Assembly (NCBI GenBank): GCA_021813405.1
Contig: JAKAKS010000008.1
Coordinates: 62,771 to 126,770 of the forward strand
Length of the DNA stretch: 64,000 bases
Origin: Nitrospirota bacterium
Lineage (GTDB): Bacteria; Nitrospirota; Thermodesulfovibrionia; Thermodesulfovibrionales; JdFR-88
Direction: 5' to 3'
The notes under the pieces were generated by a model, which saw nothing but the letters and a program-made list of their open reading frames with translations, was not told the origin of the DNA and made no database searches. The translations under genes were made by a program, and so were the position numbers. Positions 773 to 61,073 of this stretch are shown here, one piece after another (position 1 is the first letter of the stretch; the number at the start of each line of letters is the position of its first letter).

Positions 773-1201
773 ATGAGCGCCGCTTCCGTCAATAAAGTGC
801 TTCTGGAGACAATGGGGCTGAAAGACTCCGATTTGAAAAAGCAGAAAGCCAGGGGGATGCTGGCCTTCGACGCCATTATAAGAAAAGGCATTCCGTGCAT
901 GAAGCTTCAGTCCCTTAAAGAGGCCCTGGCCCTTACGGACAGCCAGGTGGCCGATTGCCTTGGCATAAGCCTCAGGACATTCCAGAGGAAGCGGGACGCG
1001 CGCGAAAAGCTCTCCGTTCACGAAGGCGACAGGTTCTTCCGTGCTGCCAGGCTTTTTGCTATTGCCGCGTCGGCCCTTGGCAGCCGCGACAAGGCGCGGG
1101 AATGGCTCTGGAAATCCCAGAAGGCATTGGCAGACAGGGCGCCTATCGAGGCAATGCAAACGGAGGCCGGCGCCAGAGAGATAGAGGCCCGGTTTAAATA
1201 A
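773..1201 (+). CDS. Xre-family HTH protein with a DUF2384 (MbcA/ParS-type antitoxin) C-terminal domain
   Basis: 142 aa. HTH-like segment LTDSQVADCLGISLRTFQRKR. C-terminal RFFRAARLFAIAASALGSRDKAREWLWKSQKALADRAPIEAMQTEAG fits the DUF2384 pattern. The stop overlaps the next ATG (TAATG). Confidence 0.7.
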   Translation: MSAASVNKVLLETMGLKDSDLKKQKARGMLAFDAIIRKGIPCMKLQSLKEALALTDSQVADCLGISLRTFQRKRDAREKLSVHEGDRFFRAARLFAIAASALGSRDKAREWLWKSQKALADRAPIEAMQTEAGAREIEARFK

Positions 1202-2538
1202 TGCGCACCGTGGACATCATAAGGAAGAAGCGGGACGGCGGCTGCCTTGCGCCTGAAGAGATATCGTCTTTAATTCAGGGGTACAGCGCAGGCGCGGTGC
1301 CCGATTACCAGATGGCTTCCTTTTTGATGGCCGTTTATAACAATGGCATGCGCGATGATGAAACCATGGCCCTTACCCAGGCCATGCTCAACTCCGGCTC
1401 CAGGCTGGACCTGAGCGGCGTCACCGGCATTAAAATAGACAAGCACTCCACCGGCGGCGTGGGCGATAAAACCAGCATCATCCTGGCTCCTCTCATGGCG
1501 GCTATGGGGCTTAAGGTGCCCATGATAGCCGGGCGCGGGCTGGGCCATACCGGCGGAACCATAGACAAGCTTGCCTCCATTCCCGGTTTAAGCACGGAGG
1601 CCGGCCCGGAAGATATTCGGGAACGGCTTAAAACAGTGGGCTGCTCGATCAGCCGGCAAAGCGGCGCGATAGCCCCCGCGGACAAAAAGATATACGCCCT
1701 GCGGGACGCCACCGCAACTGTGGAGTCCATCCCGCTTATAGCGGCAAGCATCATGTCGAAAAAACTTGCCGAGTCTCTTGACGCCCTTCTTCTGGACGTG
1801 AAGACCGGCTCCGGCGCGCTGACAAAGGACATTGAAGGCGCCAGAAAACTTGCCCGGCTTATGGTGGACATCGGCAACTCCATGGGTGTAAAGACCGCGG
1901 CCGTTATAACCGATATGGACGCGCCGCTCGGGCGCGCCGTGGGCAACAGCCTGGAGGTAAAGGAATGCGTATCCGCCCTTAAAGGCAAGGCCGCGCCGGA
2001 CCTGATGGAAGTCACGCTTGTGCTTGCCGCATGGGCGCTGCACCTGGCCGATTCTGTAAGCGAAGAGGTGCCGGTGAGGACAATGGCCGGTCCCGTTGTG
2101 GCCGGTTATAAAAACGAGGTATTCGATTACCTTGAGCACGCCGACGCATTCAAGAAGTTCGCCGAGTTTGTGGATGCCCAGGGTGGAGACCCGGAGGCCG
2201 CTTTCAAGCTGTCGATGCTGCCCGCGGCAAAGGAAATCAAGACGGTAGAGTCCCCGTGGGAAGGATATATAAGAAAACTGGACGCCTTTGCCGTTGGCCA
2301 TGCCGCGGCGCTCCTTGGCGGCGGACGGGACAGGATGGAGGATGATGTTGACCTGTCGGCCGGTATCCTGATAAACAAGAAACCCGGGGACAAGGTGGCC
2401 AAAGGGGAGCTGCTTGCCACGCTGCATACCAATGACACCGCCCGGCTAAAGGAGGCCGGCGAGGTCTATCTTTCCGGGATTGAGATAACGGAGCGCGACC
2501 TGCCTGCCAGGAAACTTATTCTGGACGTAGTGGTCTGA
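1201..2538 (+). CDS. deoA: Thymidine / pyrimidine-nucleoside phosphorylase
   Basis: 445 aa. Family motifs KIDKHSTGGVGDK and GRGLGHTGGTIDKL. Typical length. Confidence 0.9.
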   Translation: MRTVDIIRKKRDGGCLAPEEISSLIQGYSAGAVPDYQMASFLMAVYNNGMRDDETMALTQAMLNSGSRLDLSGVTGIKIDKHSTGGVGDKTSIILAPLMAAMGLKVPMIAGRGLGHTGGTIDKLASIPGLSTEAGPEDIRERLKTVGCSISRQSGAIAPADKKIYALRDATATVESIPLIAASIMSKKLAESLDALLLDVKTGSGALTKDIEGARKLARLMVDIGNSMGVKTAAVITDMDAPLGRAVGNSLEVKECVSALKGKAAPDLMEVTLVLAAWALHLADSVSEEVPVRTMAGPVVAGYKNEVFDYLEHADAFKKFAEFVDAQGGDPEAAFKLSMLPAAKEIKTVESPWEGYIRKLDAFAVGHAAALLGGGRDRMEDDVDLSAGILINKKPGDKVAKGELLATLHTNDTARLKEAGEVYLSGIEITERDLPARKLILDVVV

Positions 2539-2665
2539 TTCAAAGCCTGTCCTGTAATTTCCATTTGACTTTTTCCGTGGAAGTGCAAAAATCTTCATAT
2601 ACGGTTTGAGCACGTAAAAAATGCCTTCCTCTTGCTAACTGAAAGCCGGTCAAAAGGAGAATGCC

Positions 2666-3124
2666 ATGGGTAAAAACAGGATTTCATGGTTGATGGCTGT
2701 CATTTTAGTGCTTTTCGCTGCTACCGTGGCGCAGGCCGCCTGGAGGGGCGGCATGGGCAGCGGCGGATGGGGTATGGGGTCGGCTTACCAGAGGATGTAC
2801 AATCCGCAGACCATTGAAACGGTTTCCGGTGTTGTGGAATCCGTGGAGAAATTCAAACCGATGAGAGGGATGTATTCCGGGATACACCTTATGGTCAAAA
2901 CGGAAAAGGGAGTTGTCCCGGTGCACCTTGGGCCGGACTGGTACATTGACAGGCAGGATGTAAAGTTTAAAAAGGGAGACAAGGTGGACGTTACGGGCTC
3001 AAAAATTACGTTTGATGGAAAGCCCGCAATCATCGCGCAGCAGATAAAAAAGGACGGCGGCACGCTTGTGCTAAGAAACAGCGCAGGCATACCGGAATGG
3101 GCAGGATGGCGCAGAGGCAGATGA
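2666..3124 (+). CDS. Secreted protein of unknown function (beta-rich, OB-fold-like C-terminal domain)
   Basis: 152 aa. Signal peptide ...LVLFAATVAQA, Gly/Trp-rich linker, AAGGAG RBS upstream. Confidence 0.6.
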   Translation: MGKNRISWLMAVILVLFAATVAQAAWRGGMGSGGWGMGSAYQRMYNPQTIETVSGVVESVEKFKPMRGMYSGIHLMVKTEKGVVPVHLGPDWYIDRQDVKFKKGDKVDVTGSKITFDGKPAIIAQQIKKDGGTLVLRNSAGIPEWAGWRRGR

Positions 3125-3150
3125 AAGGTCAAAAATTCATCTAAATCAGA

Positions 3151-3381
3151 CCGGTTAGCCGTTACCGCGGCATTTGCCGATATGCCTTTAAGCTCTCATC
3201 TTGGTTTTTTCTTTTTCCGAGGGCGGTGTTCGTCTGCGTTATGGCGCGGTCTTTTCCACCAGATCCACCGTGGTACCATGCGCGGCTCACATGAATACGG
3301 CAAACGGCCATCGCCGCTTGACTGCCGGCAGGTCCGCCGCGCCAATTCGCTCACAACCCGCCACGCTTTGCCCGGTACGTC
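3151..3381 (-). repeat. R1 interspersed structured element, copy A (candidate ncRNA)
   Basis: On the minus strand it contains GTGAGCGAA, CCGTATTCATGTGAGCCGCGC (3280-3300, identical to 58243-58263) and TAACGCAGACGAACACCGCCC (3221-3241), followed by TCGGAAAAAG. Only weak ORFs overlap it. Confidence 0.6.
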
Positions 3382-3566
3382 AAATGCAACATCAAAAAAT
3401 CTCTGTGAATAATTCGGGAGATGTCCCCAGATTATGCTGAGGCGCGCCCCTAACAGAGTCGAACACTGCCCCGCGAAAAAGTAAAACCCGGCTATTTTAA
3501 GATTCAGGTATATCGGCGAACGCCGCAAATAAACTTGCCCTATAGGAAACCAGCAGAGCCAAAAAT
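3325..3566 (+). repeat. R1 element, diverged copy F, head-to-head with and overlapping copy A
   Basis: GGTCCGCCGCGCCA (compare AGTCCGCCGCGCCA at 58161). TAACAGAGTCGAACACTGCC at 3451-3470, followed by CCGCGAAAAAGTAAAACCCGG (compare copy B). 3' ATATCGGCGAACGCCGC...CAGCAGAGCCAAAAA. Confidence 0.45.
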
Positions 3567-3642
3567 TACAAATGTGAAACGTATCTGTCTTTTTAGCTAA
3601 TTCCGCGCTATATGCAACATCGAAAAACTCTATTGTGTTAAT

Positions 3643-4089
3643 ATGATTGCGTTGTACAATAAAAACTCAGGGAGGGGAGAAGTGAAACTGTTTTTTTCTG
3701 CAACTTCAATTTTATTATGCCTTTCTTTAGTGAGCTGCGCCTCGATCATACACGGAACATCTCAGGATGTAGGTTTTTCAAGTACGCCGCCTGGGGCTTT
3801 TGTCACTGTCGACAATCATCCCGAATGTACAACTCCATGTGTAGCCCACCTCAAGCGAAGGGATAACCATGTAGTTAAAATGGATCTCAATGGGTATCAA
3901 ACATTTAGTGCTACGCTTACGAGAGAGGCATCCGGTTGGGTATGGGGAAATATAGTATTTGGCGGCCTTGTAGGTCTTGTAGTGGATGCCGTAGATGGCG
4001 GTTTTTATAACCTTACTCCAAAACACGTTACGGCCACATTAGTTGCTAAGCCTACAACGACAGCTCTAACGAATAGCACTGGGAAATAG
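3643..4089 (+). CDS. PEGA-domain lipoprotein
   Basis: Lipobox LSLVSC. PEGA-like core PPGAFVTVDN...NGYQTFSATL. Gly-rich hydrophobic C-terminus. The real start is probably GTG 3682, behind GGAGGGGAG. Confidence 0.7.
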   Translation: MIALYNKNSGRGEVKLFFSATSILLCLSLVSCASIIHGTSQDVGFSSTPPGAFVTVDNHPECTTPCVAHLKRRDNHVVKMDLNGYQTFSATLTREASGWVWGNIVFGGLVGLVVDAVDGGFYNLTPKHVTATLVAKPTTTALTNSTGK

Positions 4090-4128
4090 GCGCTTCTTTA
4101 AGATTAAACATCTTTTTATAATAAATCC

Positions 4129-4154
4129 AGGGCGGGGTTCTCCCGCCCTTTTTA
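4129..4154 (+). terminator. Rho-independent terminator
   Basis: AGGGCGGGG-TTCT-CCCGCCCT followed by a T run, 40 nt after the stop at 4089. Confidence 0.75.
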
Positions 4155-4198
4155 CTTCACTTACGCCCCCCGGATTACACCCAACACCCCTCAATACC

Positions 4199-4570
4199 CA
4201 TGACACAAACTTAATGACATATGTCATATTGACGATGTCATGGCCTGCCGGGGTAAGATGGCGCTGGCAGAGGGGCTTGCCCGTTCCTGCTCTTTGAAAA
4301 AATGCCGTAAAATGACCGGCAAGCCGGAGAATAACCGCTAAAACGTTAATGTGACGCGGAGAGGTCCAAATCTCAAAAAAATCTCAAAAAATACGGCCAG
4401 TTACGTCTGGAACAGGCTTTTTGGGGCGAAAAATCAAAAACTTTTAAAATCGGGCAGTCAGGCGGAATTGACAACGGAAAAGATGGAACAAATGGAACAA
4501 AAATTTGGCCTTAAGCGGGCCGGAAATAAACGGAAATCCCGAAATTGCCGGAACATATAAAAAGAAAAGG
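4199..4570 (+). repeat. R2 element copy 1 (nested palindrome, GGA/GGAAC direct repeats, A-rich tail)
   Basis: CATGACACAAACT (4199-4211), TGGAACAAAAATTT (4493-4506) and GGAACATATAAAAAGAAAAGG (4550-4570) are each identical to blocks at 60618-60630, 60997-61010 and 61053-61073. Confidence 0.6.
4200..4243. promoter_or_regulatory. PAL motif: ATGACA-N8-ATGACATATGTCAT-N8-TGTCAT
   Basis: Central perfect 14-bp palindrome ATGACATATGTCAT at 4214-4227, with outer ATGACA/TGTCAT half-sites. Related sites at 16667, 30112 and 60611. Confidence 0.55.
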
Positions 4571-4585
4571 CTTGGCGGGGGCTTT

Positions 4586-5395
4586 CTACGGCTTATATCC
4601 AGCGATGATAATCCCGGCCTGGTCGGCCAGCCGCACGCACGCGGTTTTGTCCATGAATATGGTTGCGCCGGCCTCCACTGCAAGCACAGATGCGTTGGCG
4701 GCCAGCATTGATTCTATGGTTGCGGGGCCTATTGCGGGCACGTCGAACCTGGGGTCCTGCTCCGGTTTTGCAACCTTCACCACAACGGCCCCTTTCATGG
4801 CAAGCCCGCCGCCGCGCTCTATTGCCTTGTCCGTGCCCTCTATGGCCTCCACAGCCATTACCGCGCGGTTTTTAACAACAACCGTCTGGCCGATATCAAG
4901 CCGCCCCATCTCCTTGGCCACTTCAAACCCGAACTCGATGTCCTTCCATTGGGCGGACGATGGTTTCTTTTTTGTGTAAACCCCTTCTTTGGCAAGCAGG
5001 CCGGGGCAGAAGGCGGCGGTATTCAGAAGCGTTATGCCGTCCTTTTCCAGTTCCCTTGTTATGGCCAGCATTATAGTGTCGTCCTTGCGGTCTTTGAGTG
5101 TAAGCAGCAGTTTTATGGCGCGGGCGTCAGGCGTTATCCGGTTTTTATAGAGGAGCTGTTTTGATACCTTGCCGGCAAACACGGCCTCTTTTACGCCGTG
5201 CTTTTTAAGGGCCGCTATCATCCTGCCCAGCTTGCCCACATTCACGCGCTCCACGGCGTGCGCGGCGGAGAGGGATTCCGGGTCCGCCACGGGGTCCAGG
5301 GCCACGGCCACCACCTGCACGCCGTTTTTGGCGGCCTCTTCAACGATGGCGCGGGGCAGATCGCCCTTGCCGGCGATAAGCCCTAGCGTTCTCAT
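4586..5395 (-). CDS. lpxI: UDP-2,3-diacylglucosamine pyrophosphatase LpxI (DUF1009)
   Basis: 269 aa. N-terminus LGLIAGKGDLP. Directly downstream of lpxA in the lpxD-fabZ-lpxA cluster. Confidence 0.8.
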   Translation of the reverse strand: MRTLGLIAGKGDLPRAIVEEAAKNGVQVVAVALDPVADPESLSAAHAVERVNVGKLGRMIAALKKHGVKEAVFAGKVSKQLLYKNRITPDARAIKLLLTLKDRKDDTIMLAITRELEKDGITLLNTAAFCPGLLAKEGVYTKKKPSSAQWKDIEFGFEVAKEMGRLDIGQTVVVKNRAVMAVEAIEGTDKAIERGGGLAMKGAVVVKVAKPEQDPRFDVPAIGPATIESMLAANASVLAVEAGATIFMDKTACVRLADQAGIIIAGYKP

Positions 5396-7690: not shown

Positions 7691-8239
7691 TTACTGGCCC
7701 TTGCTCCCGGCGGAGGTTGCCAGCATGTCGTTATATTTCTCTATTACCTCTTTTGTGAGGTCCGTGGCGCCGTTGGCGTAGAGCACCGAGTCCGCCGGCA
7801 GGATGAGATTGTAATTCTCCTTCTTCCCGATGGCGTCTATCACCTTCTTGAGGCCTTCTACTATCACGATCTCTTTCTCCTGCTGCTTCTTCTGTATGTC
7901 CTGGACGGCGTCATTGTTGATCCTTTCGGCGTCCCTGTTAAGCTTTTCTATCTGGTCCTGCTTCTCTCTTACCGCATCGGAAGACAGCACCAGGCTCTGC
8001 CTGTCCAGGTCCGCCTTCAGCGCGTCCCTTTCGTCTATTTTTTTTGCTATGCGGGCCTGGTATTTTTTCTGTATCACTTCCAGGTCCCTCTTGGCCTGCT
8101 TGCCTGCATCGGACTCGTTTATGGCCTTTTGATAATCCACGTAGCCTACCTTCAACTCCGCCGCTGCGGCATGGCCGGCAAACACCGTCTGTCCGGCCGT
8201 GAGGGCCAATGCAAATATCATAGTCAGAATGGTTTTCAT
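7691..8239 (-). CDS. skp: Periplasmic chaperone Skp/OmpH
   Basis: 182 aa. Signal peptide, charged coiled-coil region. Located between bamA and lpxD. Confidence 0.85.
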   Translation of the reverse strand: MKTILTMIFALALTAGQTVFAGHAAAAELKVGYVDYQKAINESDAGKQAKRDLEVIQKKYQARIAKKIDERDALKADLDRQSLVLSSDAVREKQDQIEKLNRDAERINNDAVQDIQKKQQEKEIVIVEGLKKVIDAIGKKENYNLILPADSVLYANGATDLTKEVIEKYNDMLATSAGSKGQ

Positions 8240-8290: not shown

Positions 8291-10663
8291 CTAAAAGAAC
8301 CCGCCGAACGTGAATTCGAACCGGTTTCTCTTCTCATCGTAATTTTTCCTTATGTTGTAGCCCCAGTCTATGCGGATGGGGCCTATGGGCGATATCCACC
8401 TGATGCCAACCCCCGTAGTATACCTGTAATCCCTGGGCAGCAGGGTGTCATACGCGCTTCCCGTGTCGAAGAACACTTCGCCCTTGAATTTAAAGGCGCT
8501 TACAAGCGGGAATATGTAATCCACATCGGCTATGGCCTCGTTCAGGCCGCCTATGGGCTCATCGTTAATATCGCGCGGGCCGCCCTCTCCATAGCCAAGC
8601 CCCATAACCGTGTAGATACCGCCCACGTAAAATCTCTCATATAGCGGCACGGCCTTGCCAAACAGTCCAGTGCTGTAACCCAGCGCCCCCGAGAGTGCAA
8701 GAGTGGTGTCGTCAGAAAGCGGGATGTACCAGGATGTGTCAAACTCGCTTTTTAAATAATCGTTGTCGCCGCCTATGCCAGCGAATGTCAGGTAGAAGCT
8801 GTTTTTAGAGCCTGTATGGGGATCCAGGTAGTTGTCCCTGGTGTCCCGCGCAATAGTGGGCGTTATGCTGCTTGTCAGCTTGGAGCCGGCCTGGTCCTGT
8901 ATCTGTGGGCTTGCGGTGCCAAGCACGCCGTAGATATTGTCGTTTTCCAGTTTGTAGTTTGCCCCGATCCACCAGTTTTCCCAGTAATTCTTGTTCAGGC
9001 CGAAGGTAAAGCCCGTCGCCTTGCTTGCATAATCCAGGTAGGTCCTGCTGGATTTGTAAATGGATGTGGACATCGCAAGCTTCTGGCCCAGGAACCACGG
9101 GTCCATATAGGTGAATTCATAATCGGAGGAGATGCTGCCCAGTTCCCCCTTCAGTTTTATCGCGCGCCCGGTGCCCCCGAGATTGGACTGGGTGATATCC
9201 ACCATGCCGATTATCTTGTCCACGGAGCTGTAACCGCCTCCTATGCTGAAGAAGCCGGTGCTCTTTTCCTTTACGTTTACATCAAGGTTCACCAGTTTTT
9301 TCTCCGGGATGGGTTCCGGCTGGATGGCCACGGAATCGAAGAAGTTAAGGTTGTTTATGTTCTGATAGCTTTTCTTGAGCTTTGCGCTGTTGAAAAGGTC
9401 CCCTTCGTTCAGGGTTATCTCGCGCCTTATAACGTGGTCCTTGGTCTTGGTGTTGCCGGAAATCTCTATCCTGCCCACATGGTACTGGTCCCCTTCATCC
9501 ACGGTGAAGCCTACGGAAACGGTCTTTGCGGCCGTATCCGGCGCCAGATTTGGGGAGATGCTGGCAAGGGCGTAGCCCTTCTCGGCGTATTTGTTGGTGA
9601 TGTCCACCACGTCTTCGCGCAAAAGCGCCCGTGACAGGGGTTTGCCTGTTTTTATCTTCAGTGACTTCTCTAGTTCCGGCGTGCTGAACACCTTATTGCC
9701 GGAGAAGCTTACTGAGGAGAGTCTGAACTGGTCCCCTTCGGAGATTGCGTATTTGACGTAAGCCCATTTCCTGTTTGGCGAGAAAGTGACGTCCGGGCCT
9801 GAAACGGATGCCTGGAGATACCCATTATTGAAGTAAACGTCCGCTATCTTTTCCGCGTCCGCCTGAAGGTCGTTCTTCTTGTAATAGCCGCCCTTTGTCA
9901 GGAAAGAGAAAAAGCCCCGTTCCGTGCTGGTCATGGCTTTTCTGAGTTTGCTGGAGGGTATATGCTTATTGCCCACGAATTCTATCTTCTTTATCATCGT
10001 CTTGGGGCCTTCTTTTATCATGAACACCAGGACGGCCTCGTAATCATTTAGCTTGTGGACAATGGGCACCACCTGGGCAAGCCCGAAGCCCTCGTCCTCA
10101 TATAGATGCCGCAGCTTTACAACGTTGTCATTGATAAGCACGGTGTCAGCAACGGCCCCGGTGGGCACCTTGATCTTGTCGGTGATTTTTGAGGTGCTGA
10201 GTTCCTTGTTGCCGTAGAACTGCACGTTTATAATGGAAGGCTTTTCCTTGACTATATAGATGAGCTTGATGCCGCCCTCAAATGGCTCGGCATCTACCTT
10301 AACGTCATCGAAGTACCCGGTTGCGAAGATGTTTTTTATGTCTTTTGTGACAGCCGAGGGAGACAGCGGAAGTCCCACGCCCTGGCTTATGTGCTTCCTG
10401 ACCGCGCCCGCTTCGATCTTCCGGAGCCCCTGTATCTCGATGGCTACAACATTAGGCTCGGCCTGTTTGGGCTGGCCTGAAGACTCGTCCGCCATCGCCA
10501 GGCCGGCCGCGGCAGGCGTTATTAGAACCAGCGCCGCAAATACCAGGCTTATCGCGGTAAGTAAAACTGCCGTACGTGCTGTTGCCGGATACCCGGCATT
10601 ATTCTTAGAGGGGGAGAACACTCCTAAGCGCCTTGCTGCCAACGTACCTCCAGGTTTTTTCAA
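8291..10663 (-). CDS. bamA: Outer membrane protein assembly factor BamA
   Basis: 790 aa. POTRA repeats followed by an Omp85 barrel ending ...NRFEFTFGGFF. Confidence 0.9.
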   Translation of the reverse strand: MKKPGGTLAARRLGVFSPSKNNAGYPATARTAVLLTAISLVFAALVLITPAAAGLAMADESSGQPKQAEPNVVAIEIQGLRKIEAGAVRKHISQGVGLPLSPSAVTKDIKNIFATGYFDDVKVDAEPFEGGIKLIYIVKEKPSIINVQFYGNKELSTSKITDKIKVPTGAVADTVLINDNVVKLRHLYEDEGFGLAQVVPIVHKLNDYEAVLVFMIKEGPKTMIKKIEFVGNKHIPSSKLRKAMTSTERGFFSFLTKGGYYKKNDLQADAEKIADVYFNNGYLQASVSGPDVTFSPNRKWAYVKYAISEGDQFRLSSVSFSGNKVFSTPELEKSLKIKTGKPLSRALLREDVVDITNKYAEKGYALASISPNLAPDTAAKTVSVGFTVDEGDQYHVGRIEISGNTKTKDHVIRREITLNEGDLFNSAKLKKSYQNINNLNFFDSVAIQPEPIPEKKLVNLDVNVKEKSTGFFSIGGGYSSVDKIIGMVDITQSNLGGTGRAIKLKGELGSISSDYEFTYMDPWFLGQKLAMSTSIYKSSRTYLDYASKATGFTFGLNKNYWENWWIGANYKLENDNIYGVLGTASPQIQDQAGSKLTSSITPTIARDTRDNYLDPHTGSKNSFYLTFAGIGGDNDYLKSEFDTSWYIPLSDDTTLALSGALGYSTGLFGKAVPLYERFYVGGIYTVMGLGYGEGGPRDINDEPIGGLNEAIADVDYIFPLVSAFKFKGEVFFDTGSAYDTLLPRDYRYTTGVGIRWISPIGPIRIDWGYNIRKNYDEKRNRFEFTFGGFF

Positions 10664-13292: not shown

Positions 13293-13480
13293 CCGGTTTG
13301 GCTATTCCGGAATTCCTGTGGGTGTATGGCGTGCTCCCAAAGGCTGTCACTCCAGAGCGAACAGCCGGATCCTGAGTCTTAGTGGCGGGTTTTACTTTTT
13401 CCGCGGGACGGTGTTCGTCTCCATTGGGGCCGCCGTCTTACGATTTTCTTTTGTTCAAATCATCGCTCATTTACCACCCG
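13293..13480 (-). repeat. R1 element copy B (candidate ncRNA)
   Basis: The minus strand reads GGGTGGTAAATGAGCGATGA...AATGGAGACGAACACCGTCCCGCGGAAAAAG...GCCTTTGGGAGCACGCCATACACCCACAGGAATTCCGGAATAGCCAAACCGG. The last module closely matches 17199-17246. Confidence 0.55.
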
Positions 13481-16568: not shown

Positions 16569-16666
16569 GTCTTATGTACTATGCATGTTTTAAGCGGGGC
16601 TTTTCAACTGTGGATATCCCCCGGATGTCCCGGAACGGATTTTTTAACTTTGTTAAAAATGCTGGC

Positions 16667-16705
16667 ATGAATTTCATGACATATGTCATATGGACAATGT
16701 CATGG
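16667..16705. promoter_or_regulatory. PAL motif copy 2
   Basis: ATGAAT-N3-ATGACATATGTCAT-N8-TGTCAT. About 100 bp upstream of the divergent 16568 start codon. Confidence 0.55.
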
Positions 16706-16906
16706 CAACCGGTGTTTCAATAGGGGCAGGGCGGTTTTGTTTTGCCGCCAGGATCTTTTAAAAGCCTGATACAAGACGGGATCGCCACGGCCAATATGGC
16801 CTTGCCATTACAAAGCAAAGATTGAACGGATTTGAACGGTGAAATACGTGAAATGTTTTAAAATCAAAGGCTTGCGGATTTCAGGTTGAACACTAAAAAA
16901 AAGGGG
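16667..16906 (+). repeat. R2 element copy 2 (PAL, ATTTGAACGG direct repeat, A-rich tail), immediately upstream of R1 copy C
   Basis: ATGACATATGTCAT at 16676-16689. ATTGAACGGATTTGAACGG at 16821-16839. TTGAACACTAAAAAAAAGGGGG at 16886-16906 (compare GGAACATATAAAAAGAAAAGG). Confidence 0.55.
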
Positions 16907-16966
16907 GTTCTTCAGGATTTCCTGTGGGTAAAACAACTGCTTTTGCAGGCCGTTTGGTTTGCCTTG

Positions 16967-17250
16967 CCCGGGGAAGCGGGCGGTTTCGCGGAGTGGGCTG
17001 TGCGTGCGTACGTCTGCAAGTGCCTGGCTAGCAATAGCTCCGGCGCGGGCAAATTCGGTGAGACTGGTAAAGACATGGCGGAATCTAACGCAGACGAACA
17101 CCGCCTGCGAAAAAATCAGAGAGCAGGCTGGCCATTGGCAAATGAGTCAGCAGTGGCGGAAGCGAAGCCGTTGGGGTCCGGCTTTCGCCGTGGTGAGCGC
17201 CTTTGAGAGCACGCCATATAACCACAGGAATCTCGGTAGAGCCAAAAAAA
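16967..17250 (+). repeat. R1 element copy C (candidate ncRNA)
   Basis: TAACGCAGACGAACACCGCC at 17086-17105. 3' module GCCTTTGAGAGCACGCCATATAACCACAGGAATCTCGGTAGAGCCAAAAAAA at 17199-17250. An upstream CGTCTGC (about 17010) is complementary to GCAGACG. Confidence 0.6.
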
Positions 17251-17262
17251 GGAGGCAGCCGG

Positions 17263-17964
17263 TCAGGCGGGGGTTCTTGCAAGGGCCAGGACGAACACCT
17301 CTTTTGCACCGGCCTTAAGTAGCGCTTTGGCGCAATGGTGCGCGGTGGCGCAGGTGGTGATAACATCGTCCGCAAGGATAATCCGCAGGCCGTTCGCGCA
17401 TGCGTCTGCCTTGAAGACGCCGCGAAGGTTTTTAAGCCGTTCCTCCCGGTTCAGGGAGGATTGGGGCAACGTGGCCCTGGTCTTTAAAAGCGCGTGCGGC
17501 AGGAATTCAAGCCCCTTCTCATCAGATATCGCCTTGCCTAAAAGAAGGCTCTGGTTAAAGCCCCTTGCAAGTATGCTTTTTTTTGAAACCGGCACGGCCG
17601 CCACGGCGTCCGCCTCCGGCATTTCAATGGCTGAAAGCAGCCTGGCAAGCGGCGCGCCCAACCTGCGTACCTTAGAGAACTTGAAGGCGTTAATCGCTTC
17701 TTTAAGCGTATCGCTGTACAGCCCATAATAAAAAGCTTTTGTAAACGCGGGCCTCTTTTCAATGCACCGCTGGCAGGTGACGGAGTAGGCGGAGACAAGC
17801 GGCTCTCCGCAGATATTGCAGCGCGGCCCCTCATATAACGGCATTGAATTCCAGCAACTGGAGCAAATGGGAGAGTGGGAGAACACGTCCGAAACAAGCC
17901 CGCACACAGGGCAATTGGAGGGGAAGACCGTTTTTAAAAGAGGGCGGGCCAGCAGGCCCGCCAT
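17263..17964 (-). CDS. comF: ComF family protein (amidophosphoribosyltransferase-like)
   Basis: 233 aa. N-terminal Cys-pair zinc fingers (CPVC..CSSC, CNIC..CQRC). PRTase motif IILADDVITTCAT. Confidence 0.85.
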   Translation of the reverse strand: MAGLLARPLLKTVFPSNCPVCGLVSDVFSHSPICSSCWNSMPLYEGPRCNICGEPLVSAYSVTCQRCIEKRPAFTKAFYYGLYSDTLKEAINAFKFSKVRRLGAPLARLLSAIEMPEADAVAAVPVSKKSILARGFNQSLLLGKAISDEKGLEFLPHALLKTRATLPQSSLNREERLKNLRGVFKADACANGLRIILADDVITTCATAHHCAKALLKAGAKEVFVLALARTPA

Positions 17965-35858: not shown

Positions 35859-35933
35859 TGGGGCGTCGACAAATGGCAAGTCAGGAGATTTTGGATCTCC
35901 CATGTGGAGGTTCGAATCCTCCCGCCCCAGCCA
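35859..35933 (+). tRNA. tRNA-Gln (anticodon UUG)
   Basis: 75 nt. Acceptor TGGGGCG/CGCCCCA, anticodon stem GGAGA/TCTCC with loop TTTTGGA, T arm GGAGG-TTCGAAT-CCTCC, encoded GCCA 3' end. Confidence 0.9.
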
Positions 35934-40248: not shown

Positions 40249-41016
40249 ATGGCCCAGGATGTTGCGGCAAGGTTGGATTTAAAGGGGCTTTCCACAGAGG
40301 TCCAGAACAGGGTTTTCCCGCTGTTGGCCGAGGTGCTGGAAGGCGAGGGGGACAACGTACACTCGCTTTATGTGGTCGGCGCGGCGGCATCCGGCGGGCA
40401 TTATGTGGCGGGGGGCGAGATAAACACCCTCATACTTTTAAAAGACCTCGATTTCCAATTTGTTAAAAAACTGGCTCCCAGCGGCAAGGTGCATGGCAAG
40501 AGGCGGCTTGCCCCGCCCATAGTCCTGCCGGACGCATTTGTCAGAGAGTCATCATATGCCTTCCCCGTGGAGTTCCTCAACTACAAATACGCGCACAAGA
40601 CCGTTTACGGCGAAGATATACTGGCCGGGGTGGAGATAGACAACAGGGCCTTGCGGCAGCAGTGCGAAAGAGAGCTTGCAACCAGGCTTATCACTTTGCG
40701 GCAGGAATATCTGTACTCCCGCGGAGAAGCCGGAGCGCTTGGCGGACGCTGCATGGCCTGGAGCAGGCCTTATATGCCGGTGCTGCGGGCCGTCCTTCAC
40801 CTTTTGGGGGCGGACGCGGCAGAGACAGGCGATTACGAGGTGCTTGAAAAAATATCCGCGCTAACCGGGGCGGATTTCATGGTGTTTGCTCATAAGGAAG
40901 AAAAGGAGAAATCGCCTCTTCGCTTCCTGAAGGCAGCCGCACACCACAAGAGTTTTGAAAAAATATACGAGGTTACGGAAAGGCTCAGTCATTTGGTAAA
41001 TGAGATTAAAGTCTAG
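40249..41016 (+). CDS. Hypothetical protein
   Basis: Start trimmed to ATG 40249 (GTG 40240 is also possible), because the upstream part of the ORF is antisense to panB. No family recognised with confidence. Confidence 0.5.
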   Translation: MAQDVAARLDLKGLSTEVQNRVFPLLAEVLEGEGDNVHSLYVVGAAASGGHYVAGGEINTLILLKDLDFQFVKKLAPSGKVHGKRRLAPPIVLPDAFVRESSYAFPVEFLNYKYAHKTVYGEDILAGVEIDNRALRQQCERELATRLITLRQEYLYSRGEAGALGGRCMAWSRPYMPVLRAVLHLLGADAAETGDYEVLEKISALTGADFMVFAHKEEKEKSPLRFLKAAAHHKSFEKIYEVTERLSHLVNEIKV

Positions 41017-41803
41017 GTTTTTTATTTTCGCTTTCGCATTTCTCTTCCTTGCAGCAGCTCCGATTGTTGCCGCAGGTGACACATCCGGTCCATCATCTTC
41101 TCAATCCGCGCAACAGACCGTTCTTCCCGCAAACCCTTCCGATTACGTTATGGACCTTGCGGGGATAATAGATGCGAACACAGCCTCGCGCATAGACGCG
41201 CTGTTAAAGGAGCTTGAGGAAAAGACCGGCGCGCAGGTTGTGGTCCTCACCGTCCCAAGCCTTAATGGGCAGGACATTGAGCAATTCTCGGTTGATACCG
41301 GCCAGAAATGGGGGCTTGGACAAAAGGGCAAGGATAACGGTTTCCTTTTTGTTGTGGCCCCAAATGAAAGAAAATACTGGTTTTCAACCGGGTACGGGCT
41401 TGAAGGCACTCTTCCGGACAGCTATCTTGGCACCCTTGGCAGACAGGTTTTGGTGCCCGCATTCAAGGCCGGCCAGTATTCGCAAGGCATAGAACAGGCC
41501 GTTGGAGTGGTCGCGCAGCGGATAGCAAGCCGGAAGGGCATAACCCTTACAGGCGTGCCGCAGCCTCAGCAGATGGAGCGCCAAAGGGCCTCTTTTGTCC
41601 CGCTCATATTCGGGGGCCTGTTCTTTCTGCTTATCATTATATCGGCATTCAGGGGCGGCCTGCCCCTCATCCTTTACCCGTTGCTCTTCGGAGGCGGCGG
41701 ATGGGGCGGAGGCGGCGGGTTTGGCGGCGGTTTCGGGGGCGGAGGCTTTGGCGGAGGCGGCGGAGGCAGTTTTGGCGGAGGCGGAGCGGGCGGAAGCTGG
41801 TAA
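41000..41803 (+). CDS. TPM-domain protein (YgcG-like) with TM and poly-Gly tail
   Basis: 267 aa. Signal peptide, TPM pattern (AQVVVLTVPSL...GFLFVVAPNERKYWFSTGYGLEG), C-terminal GGGGWGGGGGFGGG... Confidence 0.85.
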   Translation: MRLKSRFFIFAFAFLFLAAAPIVAAGDTSGPSSSQSAQQTVLPANPSDYVMDLAGIIDANTASRIDALLKELEEKTGAQVVVLTVPSLNGQDIEQFSVDTGQKWGLGQKGKDNGFLFVVAPNERKYWFSTGYGLEGTLPDSYLGTLGRQVLVPAFKAGQYSQGIEQAVGVVAQRIASRKGITLTGVPQPQQMERQRASFVPLIFGGLFFLLIIISAFRGGLPLILYPLLFGGGGWGGGGGFGGGFGGGGFGGGGGGSFGGGGAGGSW

Positions 41804-58072: not shown

Positions 58073-58154
58073 AAAAACCTGAATTCTCCCTCCCCCTTCA
58101 GAGAAGAGGGGTTTAAATAACATTATTCCCTTATCCGGTTTAATATAATTTATT

Positions 58155-58410
58155 CCCGGAAGTCCGCCGCGCCAGGTAAGGCGGGGTGGGTAGTGAGCGA
58201 AGTGGCCGGGCGAGCCATTTCTGACCAGTGGCGCGGCGTTGGCCGTATTCATGTGAGCCGCGCGGCGCAGTTCTTAATTTATTGAAGCGAGACTAGGCCC
58301 TGTAACGCAGACGAACCCCGCCCCTCGGAAAAAAGGAAAAACTCAAATGAGAGGGCCAGGCGTACCGGCGAATGCCGCCGGAAAACGGAACAAGAAGGGC
58401 CCCGGACCGG
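58155..58410 (+). repeat. R1 element copy D (candidate ncRNA; best reference copy)
   Basis: AGTCCGCCGCGCC (58161-58173) is complementary to GGCGCGGCG (58230-58238). GTGAGCGAA. CCGTATTCATGTGAGCCGCGC (58243-58263). TAACGCAGACGAACCCCGCC (58303-58322) followed by CCTCGGAAAAAAGG. Confidence 0.6.
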
Positions 58411-58478
58411 AATCAGCAAGAATGGCAATCAGGGGATTAAGCCGGATATGCATTTAAGATTATTCCCTGATGTAAAGT

Positions 58479-60610: not shown

Positions 60611-60668
60611 GGCAAAGCATGACACAAACTTTATGATATATGTCATATGGACTATGTCATGCTTTGCC
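60611..60668. promoter_or_regulatory. PAL motif copy 4, with 14-nt outer inverted arms
   Basis: GGCAAAGCATGACA-N8-ATGATATATGTCAT-N8-TGTCATGCTTTGCC. Confidence 0.55.
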
Positions 60669-61073
60669 GTGTTATGATCGCGGGTGGCGGGAACCCACCC
60701 CGGCCCTGCGCCCACCCCTCCGAAGAGGGTGGTTGCCAAAGGCCCTTTAAAAAAGACATCTGCCGGAATAGGTGATAACGCAAATGCCAAATTAGATTCC
60801 CGGTTAAAACGATCGGCAATGGCGGAGAAAAGATTTTTAAAGGCAGGGGTTTACAAACGTAAAAGGCTTGAAAAAACAGGAGGTTAGGTTTGTTCCAATT
60901 TTTTAGTTATGTTGCAGGCTGGAAGTTGAAATCATTAAAAAACGGGCACTTAGGGGTGGGGCTTCACTGCGAAAAGTATGGAACAGATGGAACAAGTGGA
61001 ACAAAAATTTAGGCCCAAGTTATTGAAAATAAAACGAAATACCAAAAAAGCTGGAACATATAAAAAGAAAAGG
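60611..61073 (+). repeat. R2 element copy 3 (extended palindrome, GGAAC triple repeat, A-rich tail)
   Basis: GGCAAAGCATGACA...TGTCATGCTTTGCC. ATGGAACAGATGGAACAAGTGGAACAAAAATTT at 60978-61010. GGAACATATAAAAAGAAAAGG at 61053-61073. Confidence 0.6.

Follow-up and report, generated by a model that had tools for sequence, protein, structure and literature searches.

An inverted repeat in a Nitrospirota intergenic spacer probably consists of neighbouring, opposed pieces of a MITE-like dispersed element

In this study, we analyzed a 64,000-nt stretch of Nitrospirota DNA (the window) and arrived at the view, with a probability of roughly 0.8, that two sequences in one of its spacers, A and F, are adjacent and opposed pieces of a lineage-specific, non-autonomous MITE-like repeat, which we call R1. 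The inverted repeat seen at this locus is most probably the content common to these two neighbouring pieces, one of which is a stump. R1 has a MITE-like size and lacks coding capacity, and terminal inverted repeats, duplications of fixed length, dispersed copies and insertion polymorphism were all found in the family; this assignment rests on nine copies. Its value is mainly one of annotation, as approximately 520 nt with the look of paired RNA genes or of a regulatory palindrome can be read as a cluster of mobile-repeat copies.

R1 is a dispersed non-coding repeat of approximately 330–340 nt. The full unit, which begins with GGTTCTTCAGGATTTCCTGTGGGTA and ends with ACCACAGGAATC-N5-TAGAGCC, was revealed by three further copies on L115, a contig of a sister species whose LpxI is 88% identical to that of the window and whose flanking coding DNA is approximately 80–82% identical. 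A profile of 332 positions was built from seven copies and gave nine matches, five of them in the 64-kb window and four on related contigs. The E-values range from 1e-73 to 1.6e-29 for the seven building copies and are 1.7e-13 and 3e-7 for the two independent matches, a copy on contig L004 and F, respectively. The copies are 286–344 nt long with pairwise identities of 62–89%. R1 is regarded as non-coding because the indels that separate its copies have lengths not divisible by three and public records call no gene there. The minus-strand open reading frame at 3196–3528 was rejected as a coding sequence on account of such frame-breaking indels.

The best-preserved copy, c17, lies on the plus strand at 16905–17243 (profile match 16906–17249, positions 4–329). 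Copy c58, also on the plus strand, occupies 58131–58458 between convergent genes (profile match 58122–58447, positions 4–332). Copy c13 runs from 13576 to 13291 on the minus strand between convergent TPR and SLT/LysM genes (profile positions 4–332); it is an older, degraded copy, and the sister species has a copy (L115c) at the same position in its TPR–SLT spacer. The sister-species copies are all on the plus strand of L115: L115a at 7814–8149 (profile positions 6–326), L115b at 9227–9494 (3–293) and L115c at 19–323 (3–332). The L004 copy, from a locus in a Nitrospirae metagenome-assembled genome (MAG), is found on the plus strand at 3796–3922 and covers profile positions 166–296. In total, the window has five copies over its 64 kb, and the sister species three over 17.8 kb; the profile found no further copy in the rest of the window or in 7 kb of additional flank from the same species. 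No copy is farther than approximately 100 nt from a stop codon; both orientations occur, and several copies lie between convergent genes. This placement fits insertion into A/T-rich terminator regions.

R1 was found only in the window species, its sister species and the one other Nitrospirae MAG. By its protein neighbours, the window organism belongs to Nitrospirota/Thermodesulfovibrionales. A search for the core pattern in 185,579 species-representative genomes returned a single true locus, that on L004, and the other three matches were coincidences in coding sequences. A looser core pattern matched 105 stretches in JGI metagenomes (including L078), all by chance, since the likeness ended at the edges of the pattern by both blastn and the profile. 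Patterns for the core and the terminus gave chance matches or none in viral contigs. The profile had no match in approximately 43 kb from three distant relatives (L123, L124 and L125), whose LpxI or ComF is 58–67% identical. The spacer between the genes for LpxI and pyrimidine-nucleoside phosphorylase (PYNP) on L125 has a core-like 14-mer and motifs resembling the R1 ends; these did not reach significance (z ≤ 3.8 in one of 18 comparisons). ARAGORN predicted only a tRNA-Gln at 35859, and a tRNA or tmRNA origin of R1 was thus set aside. Our literature search found no report on MITEs in Nitrospirae.

The 520-nt spacer holds one R1 copy (A) and two stumps (F and G). Copy A (3126–3425, minus strand) is nearly full length, covering profile positions 4–299 of 332 with an nhmmer E-value of 2.3e-52. 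Its 3′ end, in which the last ~30 nt of the element are absent or diverged, adjoins the stop codon (3122–3124) of the upstream gene. Copy A is 69% identical to c58 over 219 nt by blastn (58172–58383). In the sister species, its identity to L115a is 72% over 187 nt, including a 38-nt stretch at 97%, and it matches the core of L115b at 88% over 34 nt. Fragment F (3438–3561, plus strand) is 5′-truncated and comprises only the 3′ third of the element: nhmmer aligned 3442–3522 with profile positions 182–260 of 332 and nothing more. F starts at approximately 3438 with TGAGGCGCG, contains the conserved core and a small CGGC-N4-GCCG hairpin, and is ended at 3560 by the family-terminal GCAGAGCC; the terminal motif CAGAGCCAAAA lies at 3554–3564. 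Fragment G (approximately 3600–3650, minus strand) has about 45 nt that align with the 5′ subterminal region of A.

A sequence-only reading of this region had described two R1 copies placed head to head. The two are indeed opposed neighbours, but F is a stump without two thirds of the element. The same reading had let F overlap A through a common 5′ module; the plus-strand profile match is confined to 3442–3522, and blastn detected no similarity between the plus strand of 3331–3442 and any other R1 copy. The supposed shared GC-rich core at 3332–3344 belongs to A alone: GGTCCGCCGCGCC is the complement of GGCGCGGCGGACC, a minus-strand segment internal to A that has no counterpart in F, and it resembles the 5′ part of c58 only because c58 has the two halves of a palindromic, GC-rich stem. 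The repeated motif ATGCAACATC(A/G)AAAAA was real. Its two occurrences, at 3384–3399 and 3612–3627 (one base away from the positions first given), are identical at 15 of 16 positions (94%), and the second lies within G, directly upstream of the lipoprotein gene as had been claimed.

The start of F is shared with the L004 copy. Both are truncated, they are 88.9% identical over 90 nt, and both begin with the same element start, TGAGRCGCG (window 3438 and L004 3806), in different organisms and at loci that are not related. Simple decay does not account for an identical truncation at different loci, which counts against a plain MITE. The common start suggests either a short subfamily that propagates separately or a non-random truncation point. 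Less probably, recurrent 5′ truncation could reflect copying from the 3′ end, as in retrotransposition; no 3′-initiated copy mechanism is known for SINE-like elements in bacteria. The A-run at the 3′ ends was rejected as a poly(A) tail, as in L115a and c17 it belongs to the target sequence that is duplicated on both sides.

The arm sequences named in the earlier reading were found where it had placed them. A repeat search recovered arms of 42 nt at 3203–3244 and 3448–3489, complementary at 32 of 42 positions (76%) with 203 nt between them, and a second, outer pair of 21 nt at 3167–3187 and 3506–3526 (86%). Gapped local alignment merged the two pairs into a left arm at 3167–3248, where the core and 3′ module of A stand as their reverse complement, and a right arm at 3443–3526, which holds the core and 3′ module of F, with identity in 63 of the 79 ungapped columns. 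The arms of approximately 82 nt thus enclose the body of A, because the 5′-facing ends of A and F are only about 15 nt apart. The alignment score was 33, compared with 10.8 ± 1.9 for 1000 shuffled sequences (maximum 21; z = 11.6), and the blastn E-value of the arm match within the window was 4.6e-6. Arm similarity at background level, the result that the earlier reading had named as speaking against it, is therefore not what the alignment gave. The modest arm identity of 76–80% is the only point in favor of a chance or compositional match, the likelihood of which we regard as negligible in view of the shuffle test and the matches to the family profile; the same module recurs at three other sites in the window (13364–13438 on the minus strand, 17065–17130 and 58289–58378 on the plus strand) and in two other genomes. 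The entire A and F composite is bracketed by a perfect 8-bp direct repeat, CAAAAATT (3130–3137 and 3560–3567); the repeat could be due to chance (expectation approximately 3%) or have been left behind when A and F were inserted or rearranged together.

Might the inverted repeat itself have a function, as cruciform or protein-binding DNA, as an invertible switch, or as a long RNA hairpin that serves as terminator, stabilizer or RNase III site in an intergenic transcript between the MamX-like and PEGA genes? The arms pair in both the minimum free energy (MFE) and centroid structures of the plus strand (z = −3.7 with DNA and −4.2 with RNA parameters), and a terminator scan found no canonical terminator after the upstream gene, which would suit such a role. 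We nevertheless consider it very unlikely. Arms that are approximately 80% identical and 194 nt apart are energetically unfavorable for extrusion, and the earlier proposal of a cruciform-prone site is correspondingly improbable. Neither flanking gene encodes a recombinase, and six independent assemblies of the same species are 99.95–100% collinear across the A and F region with no inversion or variant, giving no sign of a switch. Only one copy is present at the corresponding position in the sister species. Of the eight R1 loci examined, this is the only one with the paired arrangement, which is thus not a selected unit of the kind formed by REPIN doublets.

A second alternative holds that R1 copies are paralogous small-RNA genes, possibly borne by a mobile element, and that A and F are divergent structured RNAs with a functional core. 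The two most conserved islands of the family, GCGGGCGGU in the 5′ block and ACCGCCCGC in the core, are mutually complementary and form the sole consensus helix predicted by RNAalifold. This helix has eight pairs with compensatory changes in two of them, in an alignment of seven sequences, which is too few; c58 keeps an 8-bp helix with a changed sequence, GGCGGGGU:ACCCCGCC. Copies c17 and L115a fold better than shuffled sequences (z = −3.0 and −2.5), partly owing to their terminal repeats. The core is also recognizable in the position-shared copies A and L115b (88% over 34 nt, compared with only 80–82% identity in the flanking coding DNA of the two species), though it is degenerate in L115c. 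Against these points, the helix is not individually significant, with 0.016–0.36 of shuffles reaching the observed length in this GC-rich context, and it is broken in A and c13. F is unable to form it, as it lacks the entire 5′ block. For A and c58, the folds are no more stable than those of shuffled sequences (z = −0.7), promoter and terminator signals in A and F are at background in our scans, and Rfam gave only noise, both across the window at the gathering threshold and for three element regions at E ≤ 10. The 9-bp duplications and insertion polymorphism described below require transposition in any case. We therefore regard RNA genes as an unlikely explanation. The divergent transcription of two RNAs offered by the sequence-only reading is likewise not supported, since F is missing two thirds of the element, no promoter or terminator signal rose above background in either piece, Rfam had no match, and single copies fold at z = −0.7.

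Other roles for the core were rejected individually. As a sigma-54 or sigma-70 promoter in either orientation, its spacing is wrong by eye and the scan is at background. As an intrinsic terminator, it is followed by an A-run rather than a T-run in the orientation of the element, and on the opposite strand the T-run precedes the stem.

Evidence of insertion comes from the flanks. Three of the six full-length copies are bounded by exact 9-bp direct repeats: c17 by AAAAAAAGG (16896–16904 and 17244–17252), c58 by ATTATTCCC (58122–58130 and 58459–58467) and L115a by AAAATTCAA (L115 7805 and 8147). Repeats of at least 9 bp occurred in 0.96% of random window pairs with the same spacing, so that three of six corresponds to P ~2e-5. 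L115c is flanked by a decayed 11-mer, TTCGTAAAGAT and TTCTAAAAGAT, identical at nine of 11 positions, and no target duplication is recognizable at the flanks of A. Terminal inverted repeats were found at the very ends of c17 (25 nt, 72%; 16906–16930 and 17219–17243) and in c58 (29 nt, 72%). In L115a only subterminal segments pair (14 nt at 79%), and the terminal repeats are degenerate or unrecognizable in A, c13 and L115c.

Presence and absence also differ between the two species. Copy c17 is missing from the ComF–GT87 spacer of the sister species (contig L122; no match at E ≤ 10), where ComF, GT87 and a promoter-like motif unrelated to R1 are nevertheless all kept. The sequence CCCTTTTTTT occurs once in that spacer and, in the window, flanks c17 on either side. 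Conversely, the window lacks any counterpart of L115a, a copy located 3′ of LpxI. The empty orthologous sites are imperfectly clean because the flanks have diverged. For the gene next to c58, which encodes a sigma-54 activator, no close orthologue is on record (next best, 62%). The lineage-specific copies c17 and L115a have perfect duplications, and those shared by position (A with L115b, c13 with L115c) have lost them, a pattern expected of transposition followed by decay. Just past c17, GGGGGTTCTT, which consists of its 5′ end and flank, recurs at 17269–17300, 26 nt beyond the 3′ end and inside the 3′ end of the ComF-family gene, and is followed by the core-like GGACGAACACC. This may be a remnant of another R1 copy or a chance occurrence.

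We propose a pathway for the origin of the locus based on these features. A DDE-type transposase with its gene elsewhere would mobilize R1 in trans and would recognize the imperfect terminal inverted repeats (GGyTCTTCAGGATTTCCTGTGG...); their GGyTCT termini may resemble ISL3-type ends. Staggered cuts of 9 bp in A/T-rich targets just 3′ of genes would lead to duplication of the target, and old copies would decay and become truncated or rearranged. The spacer between the MamX-like and PEGA genes would be a site of R1 accumulation, where successive insertions and deletions produced the cluster of A, F and G. Read-through from the MamX-like gene would then give a transcript with an imperfect hairpin of approximately 80 bp. 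The gene lists of the retrieved loci contain no transposase, and no cognate element with R1 ends was found with the core pattern in species-representative genomes, JGI metagenomes and viral contigs or with the terminus pattern in viral contigs.

Other features that fit poorly with a MITE origin concern the termini and the interior of the element. The terminal repeats are imperfect and depend on the subfamily, and the ends of c58 and A are unlike those of c17. The strongest conservation is internal, in the core of approximately 30 nt and the complementary 5′ block, which hints at a constraint beyond that on a neutral MITE. This conservation could reflect subterminal transposase-binding sites kept for mobility, or a function at the level of the host. 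A variant in which R1 is the mobile carrier of a selected module, made up of the ~30-nt core (TAACGCAGACGAACACCGCCC...GAAAAA) and the complementary 5′ block, seems improbable to us; such a module might, for example, act at the RNA level in regulation or termination, or might bind protein, and R1 would have carried it to the 3′ ends of many genes. If the core is under selection, R1 would be a mobile element that distributes a functional module to such positions.

MITEs have been described in several bacterial groups, including Correia in Neisseria, RUP in Streptococcus pneumoniae, Nezha in cyanobacteria and Chunjie in Geobacter. R1 resembles them in being short, non-coding, intergenic and dispersed in both orientations, in its imperfect terminal inverted repeats, fixed-length target duplications and insertion polymorphism among close relatives, and in having truncated or clustered copies that could form stable hairpins if transcribed. 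It differs in its length (~330 nt, compared with ~100–200 nt for most bacterial MITEs) and in its 9-bp duplication at A/T-rich sites, which is distinct from the TA duplication of Correia and RUP. Furthermore, its termini are weak and specific to subfamilies while its best conservation lies in the internal core and the complementary 5′ block, and its parent insertion sequence was not found in the loci and patterns scanned. BOX elements of pneumococci and ERIC/IRU elements of enterobacteria share with R1 a mosaic of modules (5′ part, core and 3′ part) in various combinations, a location downstream of genes and a potential for RNA secondary structure. However, BOX and ERIC lack clear target-site duplications and terminal inverted repeats, both of which are present in the best-preserved R1 copies. 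The A and F locus is superficially similar to a REPIN doublet, in which two inverted REP sequences mobilized by RAYT transposases form a hairpin. REP units are ~20–35 nt long, whereas R1 units are ~330 nt. In REPINs it is the doublet that recurs and moves as a unit, with no duplication of the target, whereas in R1 single units carry the 9-bp duplications and the pair occurs at one of eight loci.

The genes around the spacer show what R1 adjoins. The upstream gene (2666–3124, plus strand) encodes a 152-aa secreted protein with a precomputed Pfam match to MamS_MamX (PF26390); a fresh Pfam scan gave no match at E ≤ 0.01. Its MamX-like counterpart in the sister species likewise has an R1 copy, L115b, next to its stop codon. 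The downstream gene (3643–4089, plus strand) encodes a PEGA-domain lipoprotein (Pfam PEGA, E = 2.1e-6) with a lipobox. Its likely start is the GTG at 3683, 3′ of the ribosome-binding site GGGAGGGGAG, and the terminator scan placed an intrinsic terminator at 4129–4149. This gene is absent from the called-gene lists of every public record of the locus. A sigma-70-like match at 3620–3647 on the plus strand, overlapped by G, may be a promoter for the lipoprotein gene, judging from its sequence.

The LpxI–PYNP interval as a whole is variable. In the distant relative on L125, the two genes are adjacent and convergent. In the window, the interval (1201–5395) contains a region with the promoter-like motif, the PEGA gene, G, F, A and the MamX-like gene; in the sister species, it contains L115a, ApbE, L115b, the MamX-like gene and RTC. 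The ApbE gene stands where the PEGA gene would be. R1 copies are located at the junctions of this variable region. An insertion hotspot, one of the possibilities raised by the sequence-only reading, agrees well with these data: three R1 pieces share a 520-nt spacer, duplications and differences in presence between species were observed, and the cargo of the interval differs in the sister species and is lacking in the more distant relative. R1 therefore marks sites of change in gene content in an uncultured Nitrospirota clade, the LpxI–PYNP interval being an example. In addition, the sister-species contig L116 ends inside an R1 copy, and contigs L122 and L115 end inside or beside copies. R1 probably fragments metagenome assemblies of this lineage.

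Several other features of the window were noted. A second conserved intergenic motif, unrelated to R1, consists of a palindrome, ATGACATATGTCAT, followed by TTGACA- or TGGACA-like and TAnnAT-like hexamers. It occurs at 4199–4263, 16661–16725 and 60618–60682 in the window, at approximately 4076–4125 on L004 and at 2494–2550 on L122, and is kept in the sister species even without R1. From its sequence, it looks like a common promoter with an operator. Two blocks of approximately 40–47 nt, 85% identical, are found 3′ of two of the palindrome-containing copies (window 4476–4570 and 60980–61073). The regions 4199–4570 and 60618–61073 are thus partial paralogues and may represent a duplicated small gene or sRNA locus. 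Two proteins encoded in the window, P0121 (56693–58072) and P0241 (17263–17964), are 100% identical to proteins in a MAG labelled 'Actinomycetota bacterium' at NCBI. All named homologues listed for the two belong to Nitrospirota, Thermodesulfovibrionales or Nitrospiraceae, and the Actinomycetota label is therefore probably wrong. Finally, a glycine-rich tandem repeat of GGxGG units with periods of 9–21 nt lies at 41687–41802, at the 3′ end of the open reading frame at 41000–41803.
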